A stretch of DNA of 44,371 nucleotides, from sequence record OL362273.1; one strand, given 5' to 3'. This document shows, piece by piece, positions 4,062 to 14,164 of this stretch (position 1 is its first letter; each line of letters opens with the position of its first letter). The DNA comes from Escherichia phage 6949. A model generated the notes under the pieces. The model ran no database searches. It saw nothing but the letters and a program-made list of their open reading frames with translations, and had not been told where the DNA came from. A program made the translations under genes and the position numbers.

Positions 4062-4140
4062 GTAAGATAGCGCCGTTCTTTTGAGCGGCCTATTACTAGC
4101 CAATCTTCATAGGGAGGGTTGGAAAGTAATAGGAGATAGC

Positions 4141-6039
4141 ATGGCTAAATTAACCAAACCTAATACTGAAGGAATCTTGCATAAAGGACAATCTTTGTAT
4201 GAGTACCTTGATGCGAGAGTTTTAACATCAAAGCCGTTTGGTGCTGCAGGTGACGCCACTACTGATGATACGGAGGTTATAGCTGCTTCATTAAACTCTC
4301 AGAAAGCTGTCACAGTCTCAGATGGTGTATTCTCTAGCTCTGGTATTAATAGTAATTACTGTAATTTAGACGGTAGGGGCAGTGGCGTGCTAAGTCACCG
4401 TTCCAGTACAGGTAACTACTTAGTATTTAACAATCTACGTGCAGGTCGCTTAAGTAATATTACGGTAGAAAGTAATAAGGAGACTGATACAACTCAGGGA
4501 CAGCAGGTATCTCTTGCTGGTGGAAGTGATGTTACTGTAAGTGACGTTAACTTCTCAAACGTTAAAGGTACTGGTTTCAGTTTAATCGCATACCCTAATG
4601 ATGCGCCACCTGATGGACTTATGATTAAAGGCATTCGAGGTAGCTATTCAGGCTATGCTACTAATAAGGCAGCCGGATGCGTACTTGCTGACTCCTCAGT
4701 TAACTCCCTCATAGATAACGTCATTGCTAAGAACTACCCTCAGTTCGGAGCAGTAGAGTTGAAAAGTACAGCCAGTTACAACATAGTCAGTAATGTTATA
4801 GGGGCAGATTGCCAGCATGTAACTTACAACGGCACTGAAGGGCCAATAGCCCCTTCTAATAACCTTATCAAGGGGGTGATGGCTAATAACCCTAAGTATG
4901 CAGCGGTTGTTGCAGGCAAAGGAAGTACGAACTTAATCTCAGACGTGCTCGTAGATTACTCAACTTCTGATGCTAGGCAGGCTCATGGTGTTACCGTAGA
5001 AGGGTCTGATAACGTCATAAATAATGTGCTTATGTCAGGATGTGATGGTACTAACTCTTTAGGACAAGGGCAGACTTCTACAATTGCACGCTTTATAGGT
5101 ACAGCTAATAACAACTATGCGTCTGTATTTCCTAGCTACAGTGCTACAGGTGTTATTACTTTCGAATCCGGCTCTACCCGTAACTTCGTAGAGGTAAAGC
5201 ACCCTGGCAGGAGAAACGACCTTCTCAGTTCTGCTAGTACTATTGACGGTGCAGCTACTATTGACGGCACTAATAATAGTAACGTAGTGCACGCACCTGC
5301 CTTAGGGCAGTACATAGGTAGTATGTCAGGTAGGTTCGAATGGCGGATTAAGTCCATGTCACTCCCTTCAGGAGTTCTTACTTCTGCTGATAAGTACAGA
5401 ATGCTTGGGGATGGTGCTGTATCATTAGCTTTAGGTGGGGGTACTTCTTCTCAAGTTCGCCTATTTACTTCTGATGGTGCTTCTCGGACAGTGTCCCTCA
5501 CCAACGGTAACGTGCGTCTTTCTACCAGTAGCACAGGCTATTTGCAGTTAGGTGCTGATGCAATGACCCCAGATAGTACTGGTACATACGCATTAGGTTC
5601 CGCCAGTCGAGCATGGTCTGGCGGTTTTACTCAAGCAGCATTCACTGTTACCTCAGATGCTCGGTGTAAAACAGAACCTCTTACTATCTCAGATGCCTTA
5701 CTGGATGCTTGGTCTGAAGTTGACTTTGTGCAGTTTCAGTATTTGGATCGTGTTGAGGAGAAGGGTGCAGACTCAGCTAGATGGCACTTCGGTATCATCG
5801 CTCAGCGAGCTAAGGAGGCTTTCGAACGTCACGGTATAGATGCACATCGCTATGGCTTCTTGTGCTTCGACAGTTGGGATGATGTATACGAGGAAGATGC
5901 CAATGGCTCTCGTAAACTGATTACACCAGCAGGTTCCCGCTACGGTATTCGTTACGAGGAAGTACTGATATTAGAGGCTGCGTTGATGCGGAGGACTATC
6001 AAGCGTATGCAGGAAGCACTAGCTTCCCTGCCTAAGTGA
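4141..6039 (+). CDS. Tailspike 1: beta-helix depolymerase with C-terminal intramolecular chaperone (peptidase S74-like) domain
   Basis: ATG 4141 follows RBS AGGAGA; the track start at 4081 is a TTG. The C-terminus carries SDARCK and HFGIIAQRAKEAF motifs, which are typical of auto-cleaving chaperone domains of endosialidase and K5-lyase type tailspikes. A phage promoter lies upstream and a terminator downstream. Confidence 0.8.
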   Translation: MAKLTKPNTEGILHKGQSLYEYLDARVLTSKPFGAAGDATTDDTEVIAASLNSQKAVTVSDGVFSSSGINSNYCNLDGRGSGVLSHRSSTGNYLVFNNLRAGRLSNITVESNKETDTTQGQQVSLAGGSDVTVSDVNFSNVKGTGFSLIAYPNDAPPDGLMIKGIRGSYSGYATNKAAGCVLADSSVNSLIDNVIAKNYPQFGAVELKSTASYNIVSNVIGADCQHVTYNGTEGPIAPSNNLIKGVMANNPKYAAVVAGKGSTNLISDVLVDYSTSDARQAHGVTVEGSDNVINNVLMSGCDGTNSLGQGQTSTIARFIGTANNNYASVFPSYSATGVITFESGSTRNFVEVKHPGRRNDLLSSASTIDGAATIDGTNNSNVVHAPALGQYIGSMSGRFEWRIKSMSLPSGVLTSADKYRMLGDGAVSLALGGGTSSQVRLFTSDGASRTVSLTNGNVRLSTSSTGYLQLGADAMTPDSTGTYALGSASRAWSGGFTQAAFTVTSDARCKTEPLTISDALLDAWSEVDFVQFQYLDRVEEKGADSARWHFGIIAQRAKEAFERHGIDAHRYGFLCFDSWDDVYEEDANGSRKLITPAGSRYGIRYEEVLILEAALMRRTIKRMQEALASLPK

Positions 6040-6124: not shown

Positions 6125-7837
6125 ATGCTTCAAAGATTAAGTGCTTACTTGGTGAAGTACAAGAGTAAACTAACAGGTACTATTGAGCGCCTGCTATCTG
6201 ATAAACTATCGGATACAATAGATGTTGCGGATTTTGGAGTTACTCCATCTTCCAATGACAACAGGCAAGCACTTCAAGCTGCGTTCAATGCAGTCAGAGT
6301 GTTAGGTGGTGGCACTGTATTAGTCACTAAAGCTGGAAAATACAAACTCAGTGGTACTGTTGAGATATTTGCTAATACACACTTCAAGGTTGCTAAAGGT
6401 GTAACATTTGTACGTGACTACGAAACAGGAGATACGCTATTCAGATTATCACAAGGGCAAGCTAGTAATGTAACAGTCAGTGGAGGTATCTATGAAGGCA
6501 ATGGTCACACTAAGGGAGATACACCTTTTGTAGTATTTGCATCTACTAGTAATAATGATTTGAAGTTTGAAGGCATAACAGTTAACAATGTAGTGGACTA
6601 CCACGCCATAGATTTAGCAGATTGGAACAACGTAGTTATTCGTGATTGTAAATTCCTAGGTTTTAAGAATACAGGCAGTCGTAACTTCTCAGAGGCTATA
6701 CAGTTAGACCCAGGTCTTATTACAGTTGGTCACTATGTGCAGTCAAGTGGTATGCTGGTGGAGAATTGCTATGCTGGTCCAAACATAGAATCAGGGTTTG
6801 GAGGTTATGGTGCACTAATTGGAAATCACGCCTCAGCTTACGGTGTACAGGACAACAATATCCGTATCTTGAATTGCACTACAGATGGTGCTCTCTTTGC
6901 AGGTGTACGTGTATTTAACTGGAAAAACTGGACAGTGCGTGGTTGCACATTTAGGAACTCTAATGCAAGAGGTGTCCATGTTACACCTGTCTCATCTCAG
7001 ACTAAACCGCAGGGTACTCGACAAGGTAATATTGTAGATTGCACTTTTGATGGCGTAAGGACACCAGTGCTAATTGCTGCACCATCTTGGCCTTTTACCG
7101 ATATTAGTGACATTTGGCATGACCATATTGAAATTTCTAATAATACTATGATCCTCACAGAGGATGTATCCTATGGTGTAGATGCAAGGTGGTGTAAGAA
7201 TTTAATTGTAAAAGGTAATACAGGCTCTGGTGGCTTAGGGTTAATAGGTTTACGCTTTGGGACAAAATACCACATCGAAGGTAATACTTGGGAAAACGGA
7301 AGAGGTAGTGGGATTTGGTTAGGTGAGTCTGATGCTACTACATTCATTGGTACTGGTTTATCAGGAGAAGGTATACTTAGTCGTAATATCTTCTCTAAAT
7401 TAGGGCAATATGGTATTCATGTAAACTGCAAGGCTAGCGGTCTAGTGATTAAAGCCAATAATATGAAGGAAGTATCTACAGATGAAGCAGGTAGGCACTT
7501 CATTAGTATAAACACAGGGGCTAACAACATCCTAGTAGAAGGTAATATTGGAGTAGACGGAGAAAGCCCTAACAAGCCAAGCCTTGGTATTCGTGTTACT
7601 TCTTCTTGTTCCAATATTAAACTCATTGGCAATGATTGCTATGGCACACAGGCGCCTCAGAATAACCAAGGAGTTGGTTCTAGTACGGTGATTGTTTATG
7701 GACTAAATGGCAACCCTACAACTTTAGGCGTAGGTGCACCTGTAGGCTCTTTAGCAACTGATATCAATGGTTCTGGTGGTAGTACATTGTACGTTAAAGA
7801 ATCTGGTACATCTGCTCAAGGTTGGGTTGCAAAGTAG
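6125..7837 (+). CDS. Tailspike 2: pectate-lyase-like right-handed beta-helix depolymerase
   Basis: RBS GAGGAGG precedes ATG 6125. The 570 aa protein has repetitive beta-helix coils (NNVVIRDCKF, IRILNCTTDG, WTVRGCTF, NIVDCTFDG, IKLIGNDCYG) and no C-terminal chaperone domain. Confidence 0.75.
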   Translation: MLQRLSAYLVKYKSKLTGTIERLLSDKLSDTIDVADFGVTPSSNDNRQALQAAFNAVRVLGGGTVLVTKAGKYKLSGTVEIFANTHFKVAKGVTFVRDYETGDTLFRLSQGQASNVTVSGGIYEGNGHTKGDTPFVVFASTSNNDLKFEGITVNNVVDYHAIDLADWNNVVIRDCKFLGFKNTGSRNFSEAIQLDPGLITVGHYVQSSGMLVENCYAGPNIESGFGGYGALIGNHASAYGVQDNNIRILNCTTDGALFAGVRVFNWKNWTVRGCTFRNSNARGVHVTPVSSQTKPQGTRQGNIVDCTFDGVRTPVLIAAPSWPFTDISDIWHDHIEISNNTMILTEDVSYGVDARWCKNLIVKGNTGSGGLGLIGLRFGTKYHIEGNTWENGRGSGIWLGESDATTFIGTGLSGEGILSRNIFSKLGQYGIHVNCKASGLVIKANNMKEVSTDEAGRHFISINTGANNILVEGNIGVDGESPNKPSLGIRVTSSCSNIKLIGNDCYGTQAPQNNQGVGSSTVIVYGLNGNPTTLGVGAPVGSLATDINGSGGSTLYVKESGTSAQGWVAK

Positions 7838-8231: not shown

Positions 8232-8420
8232 TCTCTCGCCCTCGCCCTCGCCGGGTTGTCCCCATAGGGTGGCCTGAGGGAATCCGTCTTCGACGGGCAT
8301 GGCTGATGTACTCCTTGGATAGTACAAGGGAGGCGGAGGGAACGCCTAGGGAGGCCTAGGAATGGCTTAGTGGTGGACAAGGTGATTACCTTAGTGAAGC
8401 CTCTTAGTGCATTCCTGAGG
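8232..8420. repeat. Probable genome terminus and terminal-repeat region (one collapsed copy)
   Basis: TCTCTCGCCCTCGCCCTCGCCGGGTTGTCCCCATAGGG at 8232 parallels the T7 left end as I recall it (TCTCACAGTG...CCCCCATAGGGGG). The region is non-coding and the first early genes lie downstream. The exact boundaries cannot be set from one collapsed copy. Confidence 0.4.
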
Positions 8421-8794
8421 CCATTCAGGGCTTTTATGAGGTATTGACAGGGTGGATGGGCGTGGGCTATCTGTTCGTTTCGTTCACTCCGCTTGCGCTA
8501 CGTTCACTCGCTCACGTGTACCTTATGCTATTACTTGATGGATAGCTTAGGTTATAGCTTAGTGGCCTACCTTAGTTATAACCTTAGTGCATAGCTTAGT
8601 ATCAGCTTAGTAGTGTACCTTAGTAAGTCTTAGTGTCTTCTCTTAGTGATTGCACATGCAAGCATGTAAGATGCCATTAGGTCGCGGTCGGTAGACCGCT
8701 ACAGAAGGAGAATAGTAATAAGATGCAGTAGGAGGAACACCAGAAACCTAGCCAACCTAGCCTATCCTAGCTCTGTATCTATTGCTTTTCCTTA

Positions 8795-8810
8795 GTCTAA
8801 CATGTGAGAC
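8795..8810. repeat. Palindrome family copy, degenerate (GTCTAACATGTGAGAC)
   Basis: One mismatch from a perfect 16 bp palindrome. Its flank CTAGGTTGTCTCACATG (read on the minus strand) matches the copy at 14411-14428. Confidence 0.4.
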
Positions 8811-8844
8811 AACCTAGATTTATCTTAGTGATGATATCTTAGTG

Positions 8845-8876
8845 TTGACAAGGCCATCTCAATATAATACTATTCA
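8845..8876 (+). promoter_or_regulatory. Candidate host sigma70 early promoter
   Basis: A perfect TTGACA at 8845-8850 is followed by a TATAATACTAT block. Spacing to the exact TATAAT is only 12 bp, so the working -10 is more likely TACTAT or AATACT at 15-17 bp. It sits upstream of the first early genes. Confidence 0.35.
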
Positions 8877-9016
8877 TCACGTAGGCAGCACTGAGGTGCT
8901 TAGTAGCCAGCTAGTAAGGCATACGAAGAGACTAGCGCTTACATTGCTCTTTAACAATTTGCTTAGTGTAACCTATGTATGCCGTGGTCAATTACTTATT
9001 GAATGAGGGATTAACT

Positions 9017-9196
9017 ATGACATTAAACAACCGTGAACTATCCGTTCTCTTCACTCTGTTGTGCTACATGATTCGTAAAAACGAATTGCTTACAGATGAC
9101 GAGTTAGCCTTGTATCACCGCTTTCTTAACGAAGGTTGGACCGATACAGTTAATCAATACCGTAACATGATAGATGAGTTGAGGGAGGGTAAATAA
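9017..9196 (+). CDS. Early hypothetical protein
   Basis: RBS GAGGGA precedes ATG 9017, which is in frame within track ORF 8975-9196. It is the first gene of the early region. Confidence 0.5.
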   Translation: MTLNNRELSVLFTLLCYMIRKNELLTDDELALYHRFLNEGWTDTVNQYRNMIDELREGK

Positions 9197-9420
9197 TGTA
9201 TCAGCATGAGGTTTTCTTTGAGTCAGCTAGTGAAGCTATCCGCTTCCTTGAAGATATGCTACAAGCTGGCGTAGGTGTTGATGTACATCACTTCCTACTA
9301 GATTACGACACTGAATATCACCGAGTTACCTTAGTATCTGAGTATGACAACCAAGTCATTACTGAGTACCTAGGCAGTGAAGATTACGATTACGATGAAG
9401 TAATCACGACAAATCTCTAA
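9196..9420 (+). CDS. Early acidic hypothetical protein
   Basis: RBS GAGGGAGGG precedes the ATG, which is coupled to the upstream stop through TAATG. The C-terminus is acidic and aromatic-rich. Confidence 0.55.
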   Translation: MYQHEVFFESASEAIRFLEDMLQAGVGVDVHHFLLDYDTEYHRVTLVSEYDNQVITEYLGSEDYDYDEVITTNL

Positions 9421-9549
9421 ATTAACTGATGACAGCCACGGCATACAAGGTTACATTAAGCATCAAGACGGCGACGTCTTTAAACATCCCGCTCTTTAAC
9501 AATACGGTTTGTGTCTTGATAGGCTAACTAACTAACTAAGGTAATTATC

Positions 9550-9660
9550 ATGAAAGGGTTAATTTGTGTAGAACGTATGGTCAATGGTAAACTTGAAATT
9601 TTACCACTGGAAAACCAATCTAGCTTCAAAGAGTGGTATGGCTGTTTCTCACTGATTTAA
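9550..9660 (+). CDS. Small early ORF (36 aa)
   Basis: RBS TAAGGT precedes ATG 9550, itself preceded by a CTAACTAACTAA stop-rich spacer. The ORF is below the track cutoff. Confidence 0.35.
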   Translation: MKGLICVERMVNGKLEILPLENQSSFKEWYGCFSLI

Positions 9661-9811
9661 GGTAAAGGCTGGCACTAGTCAGCCTATCAAGGCGCAAACC
9701 AAGCTCTTTAACAATTTGGATGGTAGCTTCTTAGTCTGGATAGGTTAAACCTAGGAGATTCTCTTGAGTCTCCTATAATGTAACCTAACTAACTAAATGA
9801 GGATTAACAAC

Positions 9812-10171
9812 ATGGCTATGTCTAATATGACTTACTCTCAGGTTTACAACACTGCTCATGCTGCATTAGTTGAACGTATCTGGAATGATGCTATTGATTG
9901 TATTGATAACGCACATGATGCAATCCATGATGCGGCGGATAGTGCTGTACCAATCTATTATGCTGACATCTTCTCCGTGATGGCGAGTGAAGGAATTGAT
10001 CATTTCTTCGAAGACTCCGGCCTGATGCCAGACACTAAGGATGTAACCGTAGTATTGCAAGCCCGTATCTATGAGCAACTCACAGTTGATCTATGGGAAC
10101 GTGTTCAGTATATGATTGTTGAATACGTCAACTCCGCCGAATATTTAGAAAAAGAAGAAGAGGAAGAATAA
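9812..10171 (+). CDS. ocr: Ocr (T7 gp0.3-like DNA mimic, anti-restriction)
   Basis: The translation from ATG 9812 is MAMSNMTY...[41 protein letters not shown]...[15 protein letters not shown] with an acidic tail. These blocks match my recollection of T7 Ocr. RBS AGGA lies upstream. Confidence 0.85.
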
Positions 10172-10172
10172 G

Positions 10173-10286
10173 ATGGAAAAGCTATACAACTTCATCTTTT
10201 CAGACGGTGTAACCCTGAAGTGTTCCCTACGATTCGCTCAGATTCGTGAGGAAGTGCTAGGTACTACATACAAACTATTTAGCTGA
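10173..10286 (+). CDS. Small early ORF (37 aa)
   Basis: RBS GAGGAAGA precedes ATG 10173, which is tightly coupled to the ocr stop. The ORF is below the track cutoff. Confidence 0.35.
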   Translation: MEKLYNFIFSDGVTLKCSLRFAQIREEVLGTTYKLFS

Positions 10287-10299
10287 CACTATAAGAGAA
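10277..10299 (+). promoter_or_regulatory. SP6-type promoter variant (+1 A) in the early region
   Basis: ATTTAGCTGACACTATA followed by AGAGAAG. The -17 to -1 region is near-identical to the canonical SP6 promoter, but the +1 base is A rather than G. Confidence 0.5.
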
Positions 10300-10362
10300 G
10301 GCTTAACAAGGCGTTGCTACGGTAGCGCCTGATTAAACTTTCACTTACTAGAGGTTAAAATT

Positions 10363-10488
10363 ATGAAACTATCGCCATCCGCTAAAGGCCTCATTGCAGA
10401 ACTTAAAGACTCTTTGAGGAATCCAATCATTTGGGCACTTATCTACATACCTTATGGTATCTACCTATTTCACCTCATCACTGAGTAA
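10363..10488 (+). CDS. Small early membrane protein (41 aa)
   Basis: RBS GAGGT precedes ATG 10363. The C-terminal segment IIWALIYIPYGIYLFHLI is hydrophobic. Confidence 0.35.
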   Translation: MKLSPSAKGLIAELKDSLRNPIIWALIYIPYGIYLFHLITE

Positions 10489-10521
10489 ATAGCCTATAGC
10501 CTACCTATGTGGGCTATGTGA

Positions 10522-10544
10522 TATTTACTTACACTATAAGGTGA
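10522..10544 (+). promoter_or_regulatory. Degenerate phage-promoter-like sequence
   Basis: TATTTACTTACACTATA followed by AGGTGA. The ACACTATA core is present, but the upstream half is shifted by one base. Confidence 0.25.
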
Positions 10545-11473
10545 TTGATATGACTACGGAAAACATCCTTCTGTCTGTTCGTGAAGCTGCAACCGCTGAA
10601 ATCAAGCAGCACTTAGACAATATCGGCACTTCTTACATCAAAGTTGGCGCTTGTCTGAATGAATTACGCGGTGATTTCGAAGGTCAAAAAGACTTTTTAG
10701 CTTATGTAGAATCAGAGTTCGGCATCAAGAAAGCACAATGCTACAAGCTGATGAGTGTAGCCCGTGTCTTTGAAGGAGACGAACGCTTTAAAGGTGTGGC
10801 TATGCGTGTAATGCTGGCGCTTGTTCCTTTCGCTGATGAAAATATAATCATGGAGAAGGCCGCAGAACTCGCCGCAGAGGGCAAGCTGGACACTAACGCC
10901 GTAAACGCCCTGATTGATCCTAAGAAAGAGACAAAGGCCGAGACGGTACAATCTAAGGCTGAGGCGGTAAAACCGCAGGAGAATGCGACTGAGGCCGCAG
11001 AAACTATGCAAGGACATGCAACCTTTGAGGATTTCATATTAGAGAAGGCGAAAGAGGAGCTACAAAGTGTGCCGCCAGCAAGTGAGTCTGGTAACGACGA
11101 ATCCGCACCGTGGGAAGACAAAAGCAAGCAGGAAGACACAAAGGCAGCGCCACGGGATAACACGGCTAACACCGAGAGTGCCGCTATTGCTGGCCTTCTG
11201 GCACAAATTAAAGCACTGACCGAGCAATTACAGGCAGCTAATGACCGCATTGCCTCCTTAAGCAGCGCACGCGAAAGCAAGAAAGCAGCCGCGCCTATGC
11301 TGCCGCAATTCAAATCTTCCTGCTTCTATGCTCGCTTAGGTTTAAGCGCTGAGGAGGCAACGAAGAAAACAGCAGTTAACAAGGCACGCCGCGAACTGGT
11401 TAAGCTAGGATACGGCGAAGGCCATGAAGCATGGCCCTTAATCTCTGAGGCAGTAGAAGAATTAACTAAGTAA
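10541..11473 (+). CDS. Early hypothetical protein (310 aa) immediately upstream of the RNA polymerase gene
   Basis: RBS AAGGTGA precedes the ATG. The protein has a structured N-terminal domain, a low-complexity Ala/Glu/Lys-rich middle, and a C-terminal helical domain. It occupies the slot that T7 gp0.7 holds, but I see no kinase motifs. Confidence 0.6.
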   Translation: MIDMTTENILLSVREAATAEIKQHLDNIGTSYIKVGACLNELRGDFEGQKDFLAYVESEFGIKKAQCYKLMSVARVFEGDERFKGVAMRVMLALVPFADENIIMEKAAELAAEGKLDTNAVNALIDPKKETKAETVQSKAEAVKPQENATEAAETMQGHATFEDFILEKAKEELQSVPPASESGNDESAPWEDKSKQEDTKAAPRDNTANTESAAIAGLLAQIKALTEQLQAANDRIASLSSARESKKAAAPMLPQFKSSCFYARLGLSAEEATKKTAVNKARRELVKLGYGEGHEAWPLISEAVEELTK

Positions 11474-11536
11474 CCTTATCGGTGGCATCTTCTTAGGTGT
11501 CACCTATTAAGGTTTCTTTCACTAGGAGTAAACAAG

Positions 11537-14164
11537 ATGCAAGACCTACACGCTATTCAACTTCAACTTGAAGAAGAAATGTTTAACGGCGGTATCCGTC
11601 GCTTTGAAGCGGACCAACAACGCCAGATTGCATCCGGTAATGAATCAGACACGGCATGGAATCGCCGCTTATTGTCCGAGTTAATCGCGCCAATGGCTGA
11701 AGGTATTCAGGCATACAAGGAAGAGTATGAAGGTAAAAGAGGCCGTGCACCGCGTGCATTAGCTTTCATTAACTGCGTAGAAAACGAAGTGGCAGCATAT
11801 ATCACGATGAAAATCGTTATGGATATGCTGAACACGGATGTAACCTTGCAGGCTATAGCCATGAATGTAGCTGACCGCATTGAGGACCAAGTACGTTTTA
11901 GCAAGCTGGAAGGTCACGCCGCCAAATACTTTGAGAAAGTTAAGAAGTCACTTAAGGCAAGTAAGACTAAATCATATCGCCATGCGCACAACGTAGCGGT
12001 CGTGGCTGAGAAGTCAGTAGCTGACCGTGACGCTGATTTCTCTCGCTGGGAGGCATGGCCTAAAGACACCTTGCTGCAAATTGGGATGACCTTGCTTGAA
12101 ATCTTAGAGAATAGCGTATTCTTCAACGGGCAACCTGTCTTCCTCCGCACCTTGCGCACTAATGGCGGCAAACATGGTGTTTACTACCTACAGACTAGTG
12201 AACACGTAGGTGAGTGGATAACTGCATTTAAAGAACATGTAGCGCAACTTAGTCCAGCCTATGCACCTTGCGTTATTCCTCCGCGTCCGTGGGTATCACC
12301 CTTTAACGGTGGGTTTCATACTGAGAAAGTAGCAAGCCGTATTCGTCTGGTAAAAGGCAATCGTGAGCACGTCCGCAAGCTGACCAAAAAGCAAATGCCA
12401 GCGGTTTACAAGGCTGTTAACGCTTTGCAGGCGACTAAGTGGCAGGTTAATAAAGAGGTTTTACAGGTTGTGGAGGACGTTATACGTCTAGACCTCGGCT
12501 ATGGTGTACCTTCCTTTAAACCACTCATCGACCGTGAGAACAAGCCCGCTAATCCGGTGCCGTTAGAGTTCCAGCACCTGCGAGGCCGTGAACTGAAAGA
12601 AATGCTTACGCCGGAACAATGGCAAGCCTTTATCAACTGGAAAGGTGAATGTACTAAGCTGTACACCGCTGAAACTAAGCGCGGAAGCAAATCGGCGGCA
12701 ACCGTTCGCATGGTTGGTCAGGCCCGTAAATATAGCCAGTTCGACGCAATCTACTTCGTGTATGCACTGGACAGCCGCAGCCGTGTATACGCGCAATCTA
12801 GCACGCTCTCGCCGCAATCAAACGACTTAGGCAAGGCATTGCTCCGTTTTACCGAAGGGCAGCGTCTTGATAGCGCTGAGGCGCTTAAGTGGTTTTTGGT
12901 GAACGGGGCTAATAACTGGGGTTGGGATAAGAAAACTTTTGACGTGCGCACCGCTAACGTGCTGGATAGTGAATTTCAAGACATGTGCCGCGACATTGCA
13001 GCGGATCCGCTGACCTTCACTCAATGGGTAAATGCCGACTCCCCTTACGGCTTCCTTGCATGGTGCTTTGAATATGCGCGTTATCTGGATGCACTGGATG
13101 AAGGCACGCAAGACCAATTCATGACGCACCTCCCAGTCCATCAAGATGGTAGTTGTTCTGGTATCCAGCACTACAGTGCTATGCTACGCGATGCAGTAGG
13201 TGCGAAAGCAGTAAACCTTAAGCCCTCTGACTCCCCTCAAGATATTTATGGCGCGGTTGCGCAGGTTGTTATCCAGAAGAATTACGCCTACATGAATGCA
13301 GACGACGCAGTGACTTTCACATCTGGAAGCGTCACACTTACAGGTGCAGAACTGCGTAGCATGGCTAGTGCGTGGGATATGATAGGAATCACTCGCGGAT
13401 TGACCAAAAAGCCCGTAATGACACTACCTTATGGCAGCACACGTCTAACCTGCCGTGAATCAGTGATTGATTATATCGTTGATTTAGAAGAAAAAGAGGC
13501 CCAACGGGCTATTGCGGAAGGGCGTACCGCCAATCCTGTACACCCTTTTGATAATGACCGTAAAGACAGCCTGACACCTAGCGCAGCTTATAACTATATG
13601 ACAGCTTTAATCTGGCCTTCTATTTCGGAAGTGGTTAAAGCTCCTATAGTGGCAATGAAAATGATTCGTCAGCTTGCCCGTTTCGCAGCTAAAAGGAATG
13701 AAGGCTTAGAGTATACCCTGCCTACTGGCTTCATCTTGCAACAAAAGATTATGGCTACTGATATGCTACGCGTATCTACTTGCTTGATGGGAGAAATCAA
13801 GATGAGTCTACAGATTGAAACGGACGTAGTAGATGAAACGGCAATGATGGGCGCTGCTGCTCCTAACTTTGTGCATGGTCATGATGCCAGTCACCTTATC
13901 TTAACGGTCTGCGACCTTGTTGATAAAGGGATTACATCTATCGCAGTAATTCATGATTCTTTTGGCACTCATGCAGGCCGTACAGCCGATCTACGCAACA
14001 GCTTAAGGGCAGAAATGGTGAAGATGTATCAAGGCCGTAATGCACTGCAAAGCCTGCTAGATGAGCACGAAGAACGCTGGTTAGTTGATACAGGAATACA
14101 AGTACCAGAGCAAGGGGAGTTTGACCTTAACGAAATCTTAGTTTCAGACTATTGCTTCGCATAA
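11537..14164 (+). CDS. Single-subunit DNA-directed RNA polymerase (SP6-type)
   Basis: The 875 aa protein starts [32 protein letters not shown], matching the SP6 RNA polymerase N-terminus as I remember it. The catalytic region reads [19 protein letters not shown] and VIHDSFGTH, and the C-terminus ends ..FA. Confidence 0.97.

Follow-up and report, generated by a model that had tools for sequence, protein, structure and literature searches.

The locus described here is an open reading frame (ORF) at positions 9812 to 10171, on the plus strand, of the window, by which we mean the whole stretch of 44,371 nucleotides of Escherichia phage 6949 that was analyzed (sequence record OL362273.1). The ORF is intact and comprises 119 codons, with its ATG at 9812 to 9814 and its TAA at 10169 to 10171, and was present where a sequence-only reading of this DNA had placed it, with the correct start. 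An in-frame ATG at 9797 would lengthen the mechanically called ORF by five codons. This start was rejected because it overlaps the Shine-Dalgarno sequence and because the Ocr proteins of T7, SP6, and phage EC120 begin with MAMSNMTY, both of which identify 9812 as the correct start; the GenBank protein is also 119 amino acids long. The product matches exactly the GenBank entry URY99308.1, "protein Ocr [Escherichia phage 6949]," an accession cited as an Ocr protein in a 2026 paper on the Vectrevirus phages Sem1-4 (PMC13005862). The ocr gene of phage 6949 has an existing annotation and a name in the published literature, and a gene of this kind is typical for its phage group. The features of the region, all on the plus strand, are as follows.

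8845 to 8873, plus strand: candidate host sigma-70 early promoter, TTGACA-17 nt-TACTAT, from a consensus scan (10 of 12 positions matching)
8946 to 8961 and 9491 to 9503, plus strand: further boxA-like copies, with the same motif as the element at 9703
9703 to 9717, plus strand: boxA-like element GCTCTTTAACAATTT, identical to the boxA stretch of the E. coli rrn leader
9731 to 9796, plus strand: long interrupted leader hairpin of ocr, between the third boxA-like copy and ocr, from folding and alignment
9799 to 9803, plus strand: Shine-Dalgarno sequence of ocr, GAGGA, seen in the sequence itself, 8 nt 5' of the ATG at 9812
9812 to 10171, plus strand: ocr coding sequence (CDS), the Vectrevirus class-A allele of the DNA mimic T7 gp0.3, 119 amino acids plus stop
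10173 to 10286, plus strand: 37-amino-acid ORF directly after ocr, with stop and start in TAAGATG (PHROG 11746, E = 1.5e-29)
10279 to 10298, plus strand: first SP6-type promoter, TTAGCTGACACTATAAGAGA, downstream of ocr, from a pattern search

Genome backbone and early region

The genome surrounding ocr had been described in the sequence-only reading as SP6-like, and the polymerase, the promoters, and the nearest genomes all agreed with this. The RNA polymerase gene (11537 to 14164) encodes a product that is 85% identical to the SP6 RNA polymerase and 32% identical to that of T7. When the window was searched with the SP6-type promoter pattern TTAGSTGACACTATAGAAGA, with up to 3 mismatches allowed, 8 matches were found versus 0 expected. 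Seven of these were on the plus strand and carried the core GACACTATAGAAG. The match on the minus strand (9769 to 9788, 3 mismatches) lies inside the leader hairpin and on the wrong strand and was treated as coincidental. The T7 promoter consensus was also searched and had no match in the window. With positions 8400 to 33000 of the window (24.6 kb) used as the query for genome similarity, phage 6948 was 97.9% identical over 97% of the query and EC120, which is classified in the Autographiviridae, Molineuxvirinae, Vectrevirus, was 97.1% identical. Genes for a primase-helicase, a DNA polymerase, a portal protein, and a terminase were present as expected. The window is the genome of a Vectrevirus that resembles K1-5 and K1E and belongs to the SP6 group.

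Compared with the canonical map of Vectrevirus, this record is circularly permuted. Position 1 of EC120 corresponds to approximately position 8470 of the window, which is the biological left end, and the ocr start lies approximately 1.3 kb from this end (1,343 bp in EC120). No direct repeats of at least 40 bp were found in the window, indicating that the terminal repeat is present once in the permuted record. At the biological left end, the non-coding DNA from 8380 to 8990 contains a dense CTTAGT(G) array with 15 copies in 611 bp, or approximately 25 per kb versus 0.4 per kb elsewhere, which recalls the short repeat arrays near the T7 genome ends. At the right end of the map are two adjacent tailspike-like genes, at 4081 to 6039 and 6125 to 7837; of the two products, the one of 652 amino acids has a C-terminal Peptidase_S74 "chaperone of endosialidase" domain and the one of 570 amino acids has a right-handed beta-helix. 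This layout resembles the dual-tailspike arrangement of K1-5.

The location of the first SP6-type promoter downstream of ocr would place ocr in the part of the genome that is read by the host RNA polymerase. A candidate sigma-70 promoter at 8845 to 8873 lies upstream of both the first boxA-like copy and the first early ORF; the number of matches in the sigma-70 scan of the early region was not above the shuffled-sequence expectation, and the 8845 site alone was kept as a candidate. The string CTCTTTAACAAT has three exact copies in the window (at 8947, 9492, and 9704, versus 0.38 expected), all of them in the early region. With its flanks the motif reads (T/C/A)GCTCTTTAACAAT(TTG), and two of the three copies equal TGCTCTTTAACAATTT or GCTCTTTAACAATTT. 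Each copy precedes a hairpin and an ORF. All 5,426 complete E. coli genomes carry the boxA string approximately 70 nt 5' of 16S rRNA (median, 7 copies), and the early regions of T7, SP6, K1-5, and K1E hold 1 (just upstream of gene 0.3), 2, 3, and 3 copies, respectively. The rrn boxA is an antitermination element bound by NusB/S10. The early copies suggest that antitermination of the NusB/S10 type may be borrowed for the early transcript made by the host polymerase. A literature search on boxA in SP6 or K1-5, which missed the original SP6/K1-5 genome paper, returned nothing usable.

Between the third boxA-like copy and ocr, the 146-nt ocr leader had a predicted folding energy of -47.1 kcal/mol (z = -3.96), and none of 200 shuffled sequences folded as well. 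The hairpin at 9731 to 9796 aligns with the regions 5' of T7 gene 0.3, SP6 gp5, and K1E gp3; compensatory changes were found in 5 of its 26 predicted pairs, with a covariation term that was slightly unfavorable, and no curated RNA family covered it in an Rfam scan of 8300 to 11600. The RNase III cleavage at T7 R0.3 lies near nt 890, and by position we take the leader hairpin to be its equivalent, which makes the hairpin a candidate for processing by RNase III. All three of these assignments, to a host promoter, to boxA, and to an RNase III site, are candidates drawn purely from resemblance in motif and structure. The GAGG element of the ocr Shine-Dalgarno sequence aligns in T7, K1-5, and K1E.

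Downstream of ocr, the 37-amino-acid ORF is the equivalent of K1-5 gp4 (93.9% identical at the DNA level) and is a conserved neighbor. It was also considered as a relative of T7 gp0.4, to which no similarity was found. The promoter at 10279, upstream of the polymerase gene at 11537, would put a 41-amino-acid ORF, a 310-amino-acid gene, and the polymerase gene under both phage and host transcription. Within 10279 to 10360, this promoter is followed by a GC-rich hairpin, ggcgttgctacggtagcgcc, which was the source of a palindromic match to an Rfam miRNA family (10286 to 10356, both strands); at 25 bits versus a cutoff of 97, the match was below threshold and was discarded. The gene immediately 5' of that for the RNA polymerase encodes the 310-amino-acid protein (10541 to 11473), which lacks any Pfam domain. 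This protein matches PHROG 4571 strongly and has conserved counterparts in SP6 (gp7) and K1-5 (gp6). Its gene occupies roughly the same slot as that of the gp0.7 kinase of T7.

Comparison of the product with T7 Ocr

The sequence-only reading had called the product a homolog of T7 Ocr from blocks shared with that protein and had named an alignment to T7 gp0.3 as the check. The alignment gave 75 identical residues of 117 (64%), far beyond chance, and every one of these blocks as well as the acidic tail was seen in the HMMER alignment. HMMER matched residues 1 to 117 of the product to residues 1 to 117 of T7 Ocr (1s7z_A, PDB 1S7Z) without internal gaps (E = 2.1e-40). The Pfam family PF08684, "DNA mimic ocr," was matched at 141 bits (E = 2e-41; gathering cutoff, 25 bits), with profile positions 1 to 97 of 101 covered, and PHROG 2568, "ocr-like anti-restriction," was matched with an E value of 5.9e-46. 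On the strength of these comparisons, the product of 9812 to 10171 is an Ocr homolog and the original observation is confirmed.

The two proteins are colinear over their full length, share the N terminus MAMSNMTY and an acidic C-terminal tail, and are most alike in the central block of amino acids (aa) 36 to 91, where 47 of 56 residues are identical. Their genes also agree in position: each is, near the left end, the first early gene of appreciable length. The phage 6949 protein differs from that of T7 in its length (119 versus 117 amino acids) and in its helices at aa 12 to 35 and aa 92 to 116, which are largely rewritten, and its gene sits in a genome with SP6-type polymerase and promoters. 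Local identity was 33 to 44% in the helices at aa 12 to 35 (5 of 15 and 4 of 9 residues) and 35% in the C-terminal tail (6 of 17). The protein is also less extreme in charge, with 25 Asp plus Glu residues versus 5 Lys plus Arg (net -20), compared to 34 acidic residues versus 6 Lys plus Arg (net -28) in T7 Ocr. Its 25 acidic residues are well above the approximately 15 that are conserved among Ocr homologs (PMC3439906).

The positions of the lost charges were compared to the results of mutagenesis of T7 Ocr, in which the charge block at aa 59 to 91, including D73, was crucial for activity, whereas the acidic residues of aa 12 to 26, aa 25 to 35, aa 92 to 99, and the tail after aa 99 could be removed with wild-type or near-wild-type activity (Roberts 2012, PMC3439906). 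Within aa 59 to 91, 27 of 33 residues were identical to those of T7 Ocr and 7 of 8 acidic residues, including D73, were kept, the sole acidic loss being E64 to F. All of the other losses (D12N, E16A, D26A, D29C, D32N, D96R, E98Q, D99Y, E106N, E107S, E110Y, and E113K) fell in the regions that are dispensable in T7 Ocr, namely aa 12 to 35, aa 92 to 99, and the C-terminal tail. In the same alignment F54 and L82 were unchanged. These are dimer-interface and PARIS-contact residues of T7 Ocr, and mutation of F54 or L82 lets T7 escape PARIS (PMC10802264, PMC9122126). These results demonstrate the homology of the product to T7 Ocr and the conservation of its key residues, in a gene at the corresponding genomic position.

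A single-sequence AlphaFold2 model of the protein was all-helical but poor (pLDDT 58), and a Foldseek search of this model against the PDB gave no match with an E value of 0.001 or less, with 1S7Z not among the best 50. From the 64% identity to a protein of solved structure, we infer an all-helical fold like that of T7 Ocr.

Occurrence of ocr and its two Vectrevirus alleles

The sequence-only reading had implied that a T7 gene in an SP6-like genome is an oddity, a view that was not supported by comparison with other phages of the SP6 group. SP6 gp5, K1-5 gp3, and K1E gp3 are Ocr homologs, annotated in RefSeq as "ocr-like anti-restriction," and the gene for each lies upstream of the RNA polymerase gene, with a few small genes in between. 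The ocr slot of phage 6949, early, at the left end, and upstream of the phage RNA polymerase gene, is syntenic with these and with T7 gene 0.3. Since SP6, K1-5, and K1E all carry ocr in this slot, ocr is a standard early gene of the SP6 group. SP6 gp5 is 77% identical to T7 Ocr and is closer to it than is the phage 6949 protein. The proteins of SP6 (Zindervirus SP6) and phage 6949 share the MAMSNMTY start, a length of 119 amino acids, membership of their phages in the Molineuxvirinae, and a gene position upstream of gp6, gp7, and the gene for the RNA polymerase, but they are only 60% identical and SP6 gp5 keeps the full 34 acidic residues. Homologs were found in 567 records of the phage collection. 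Among these, 45 records of 43.6 to 45.9 kb carry the class-A allele, at 87 to 99% protein identity, and most are annotated as Ocr. To our knowledge, type I restriction-modification is near-universal in E. coli. The further claim that the presence of ocr predicts a particular host-defense context carries little information when so many phage records hold a homolog.

A second allele was found when positions 9400 to 10370 of the window were compared to positions 1170 to 2105 of K1-5. Identity was 99 to 100% over approximately 400 bp upstream, up to the start codon, and 94% in the next gene, whereas the ocr CDS was only 59% identical to K1-5 gp3 at the DNA level and 48% at the protein level, with breakpoints at the start codon and at the stop. 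The class-B allele of K1-5 and K1E, with the N terminus MERNANAYY, shares 83% identity with gp0.3 of the T7-like phage K1F, and the nearest relatives of the class-A allele outside the genus are those of T7 and SP6, at 60 to 67%. Each of the two Vectrevirus classes therefore has closer relatives outside the genus than the other class. Both classes occur under a single phage name: records of Vectrevirus T147P1 carry class A (OZ035788) and class B (OZ035797), and records of K1E carry class A (KY435490) and class B (NC_007637). K1-5 gp3 and K1E gp3, from the same genus and locus, and K1F gp0.3 share with the phage 6949 protein the core VP.YY..IF.VMA..GID..FED.GL.PDTKDV..ILQARIYE but differ from it in the N terminus and are 9 residues shorter before the tail. 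The 77% identity of Ocr between the SP6 and T7 lineages, set beside the 32% identity of the SP6-type polymerase of the window to that of T7, indicates that the ocr locus swaps alleles across the Autographiviridae. Such exchange fits an arms-race gene and is not a new kind of thing.

These comparisons bear on other accounts of the gene. That the ORF arose by chance, or is a decaying pseudogene that is not expressed, is scarcely conceivable for a frame that is intact and preceded by a good Shine-Dalgarno sequence, whose product is 87 to 99% identical across 45 phage genomes and homologous to T7 Ocr over its full length without a frameshift; no evidence for either origin was found at 9812 to 10171. 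Recent import of ocr from a T7-like phage into an SP6-like genome would agree with an N terminus identical to that of T7, with a product that resembles T7 Ocr (64%) slightly more than SP6 gp5 (60%), and with a CDS that is a swapped cassette relative to K1-5. However, the DNA identity to T7 gene 0.3 was only 70% and stopped at the gene borders, the 5' leader is the one common to K1-5 at 99 to 100%, the same slot holds ocr in each of SP6, K1-5, and K1E, and class A forms a clade of its own, of 45 records at 87% identity or more, beyond which identity falls abruptly to 67% for T7 and its relatives. Recent transfer from T7 was rejected on the low DNA identity confined to the CDS; it is largely refuted, and we consider it very improbable.

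The loss of charge and the rewritten outer helices could instead have altered what the protein binds, giving a functionally shifted Ocr with, for example, weaker inhibition of type I restriction-modification, other defense targets, or reduced recognition by Ocr sensors. The count of 25 acidic residues versus 34 in T7, the concentration of divergence in aa 12 to 35 and aa 92 to 116, and the finding that charge is a chief factor in how PARIS AriA recognizes Ocr (PMC10802264) all point in this direction, as do two very different alleles between near-identical flanks in sister phages, which would be expected under arms-race selection. Conversely, the changed regions coincide exactly with those that T7 Ocr can do without in anti-restriction, homologs as a group conserve only about 15 acidic residues (PMC3439906), and F54 and L82 are unchanged. 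With the changes falling in dispensable regions and the PARIS-contact residues intact, a large functional difference of class A is disfavored, and we regard a shifted Ocr as quite improbable. A related idea, that the class A/class B dimorphism is kept in Vectrevirus by differing host defense repertoires, with class A having shed 9 acidic residues from its outer helices, appears unlikely but may deserve mention; under it, class A might, for example, keep its inhibition of type I restriction-modification and BREX while being less sensed by detectors that read the charge of Ocr, such as PARIS AriA. The reading that we prefer is that ocr of phage 6949 is an anti-restriction gene of the SP6 group working much as that of T7 would.

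Predicted function of Ocr in phage 6949

T7 Ocr, an acidic homodimer, imitates a bent 24-bp stretch of DNA and acts as a competitive inhibitor of type I restriction-modification enzymes (PMC2806950, PMC3439906). It also inhibits BREX by binding BrxX/PglX (PMC7261183) and triggers the PARIS abortive-infection system (PMC9122126, PMC10802264). The ocr gene of phage 6949 is very probably the anti-restriction DNA-mimic gene of a Vectrevirus, with its fold, dimerization, targets, and timing of expression predicted from sequence and position. Lying approximately 1.3 kb from the left end and upstream of both the first phage promoter and the polymerase gene, ocr would be expected to be among the first genes transcribed, and the host RNA polymerase would transcribe it. 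The early transcript would contain boxA elements of the rrn type and, immediately ahead of ocr, a hairpin of the processing type. The product would fold as T7 Ocr does, into an all-helical, strongly acidic homodimer mimicking bent B-form DNA, and this dimer would block type I restriction-modification and BREX enzymes. As with T7 Ocr, abortive-infection systems that sense Ocr, such as PARIS, should also respond to it. Since the crucial block is kept and both F54 and L82 are intact, the protein is expected to work as a DNA mimic against restriction and BREX that systems of the PARIS type can still detect. With 9 fewer acidic residues and a diverged aa 12 to 35 and tail, the affinity or target range of the protein could differ from that of T7 Ocr.

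A comparable strategy is known from conjugative elements, whose ArdA protein is likewise a dimeric, acidic mimic of DNA that inhibits type I restriction-modification enzymes (PMC2731889). ArdA belongs to an unrelated sequence family, found on plasmids and transposons, and no similarity between it and the phage 6949 Ocr was detected.

For users of phage therapy, these results suggest resistance of phage 6949 to type I restriction-modification, probable resistance to BREX, and possible vulnerability to PARIS-type systems. Hundreds of T7- and SP6-like phages share this defense profile, and it adds little weight beyond correct annotation. The two-allele ocr cassette polymorphism of Vectrevirus would provide a natural variant pair with bearing on which parts of Ocr set the inhibition of host defenses and which set its detection by them.
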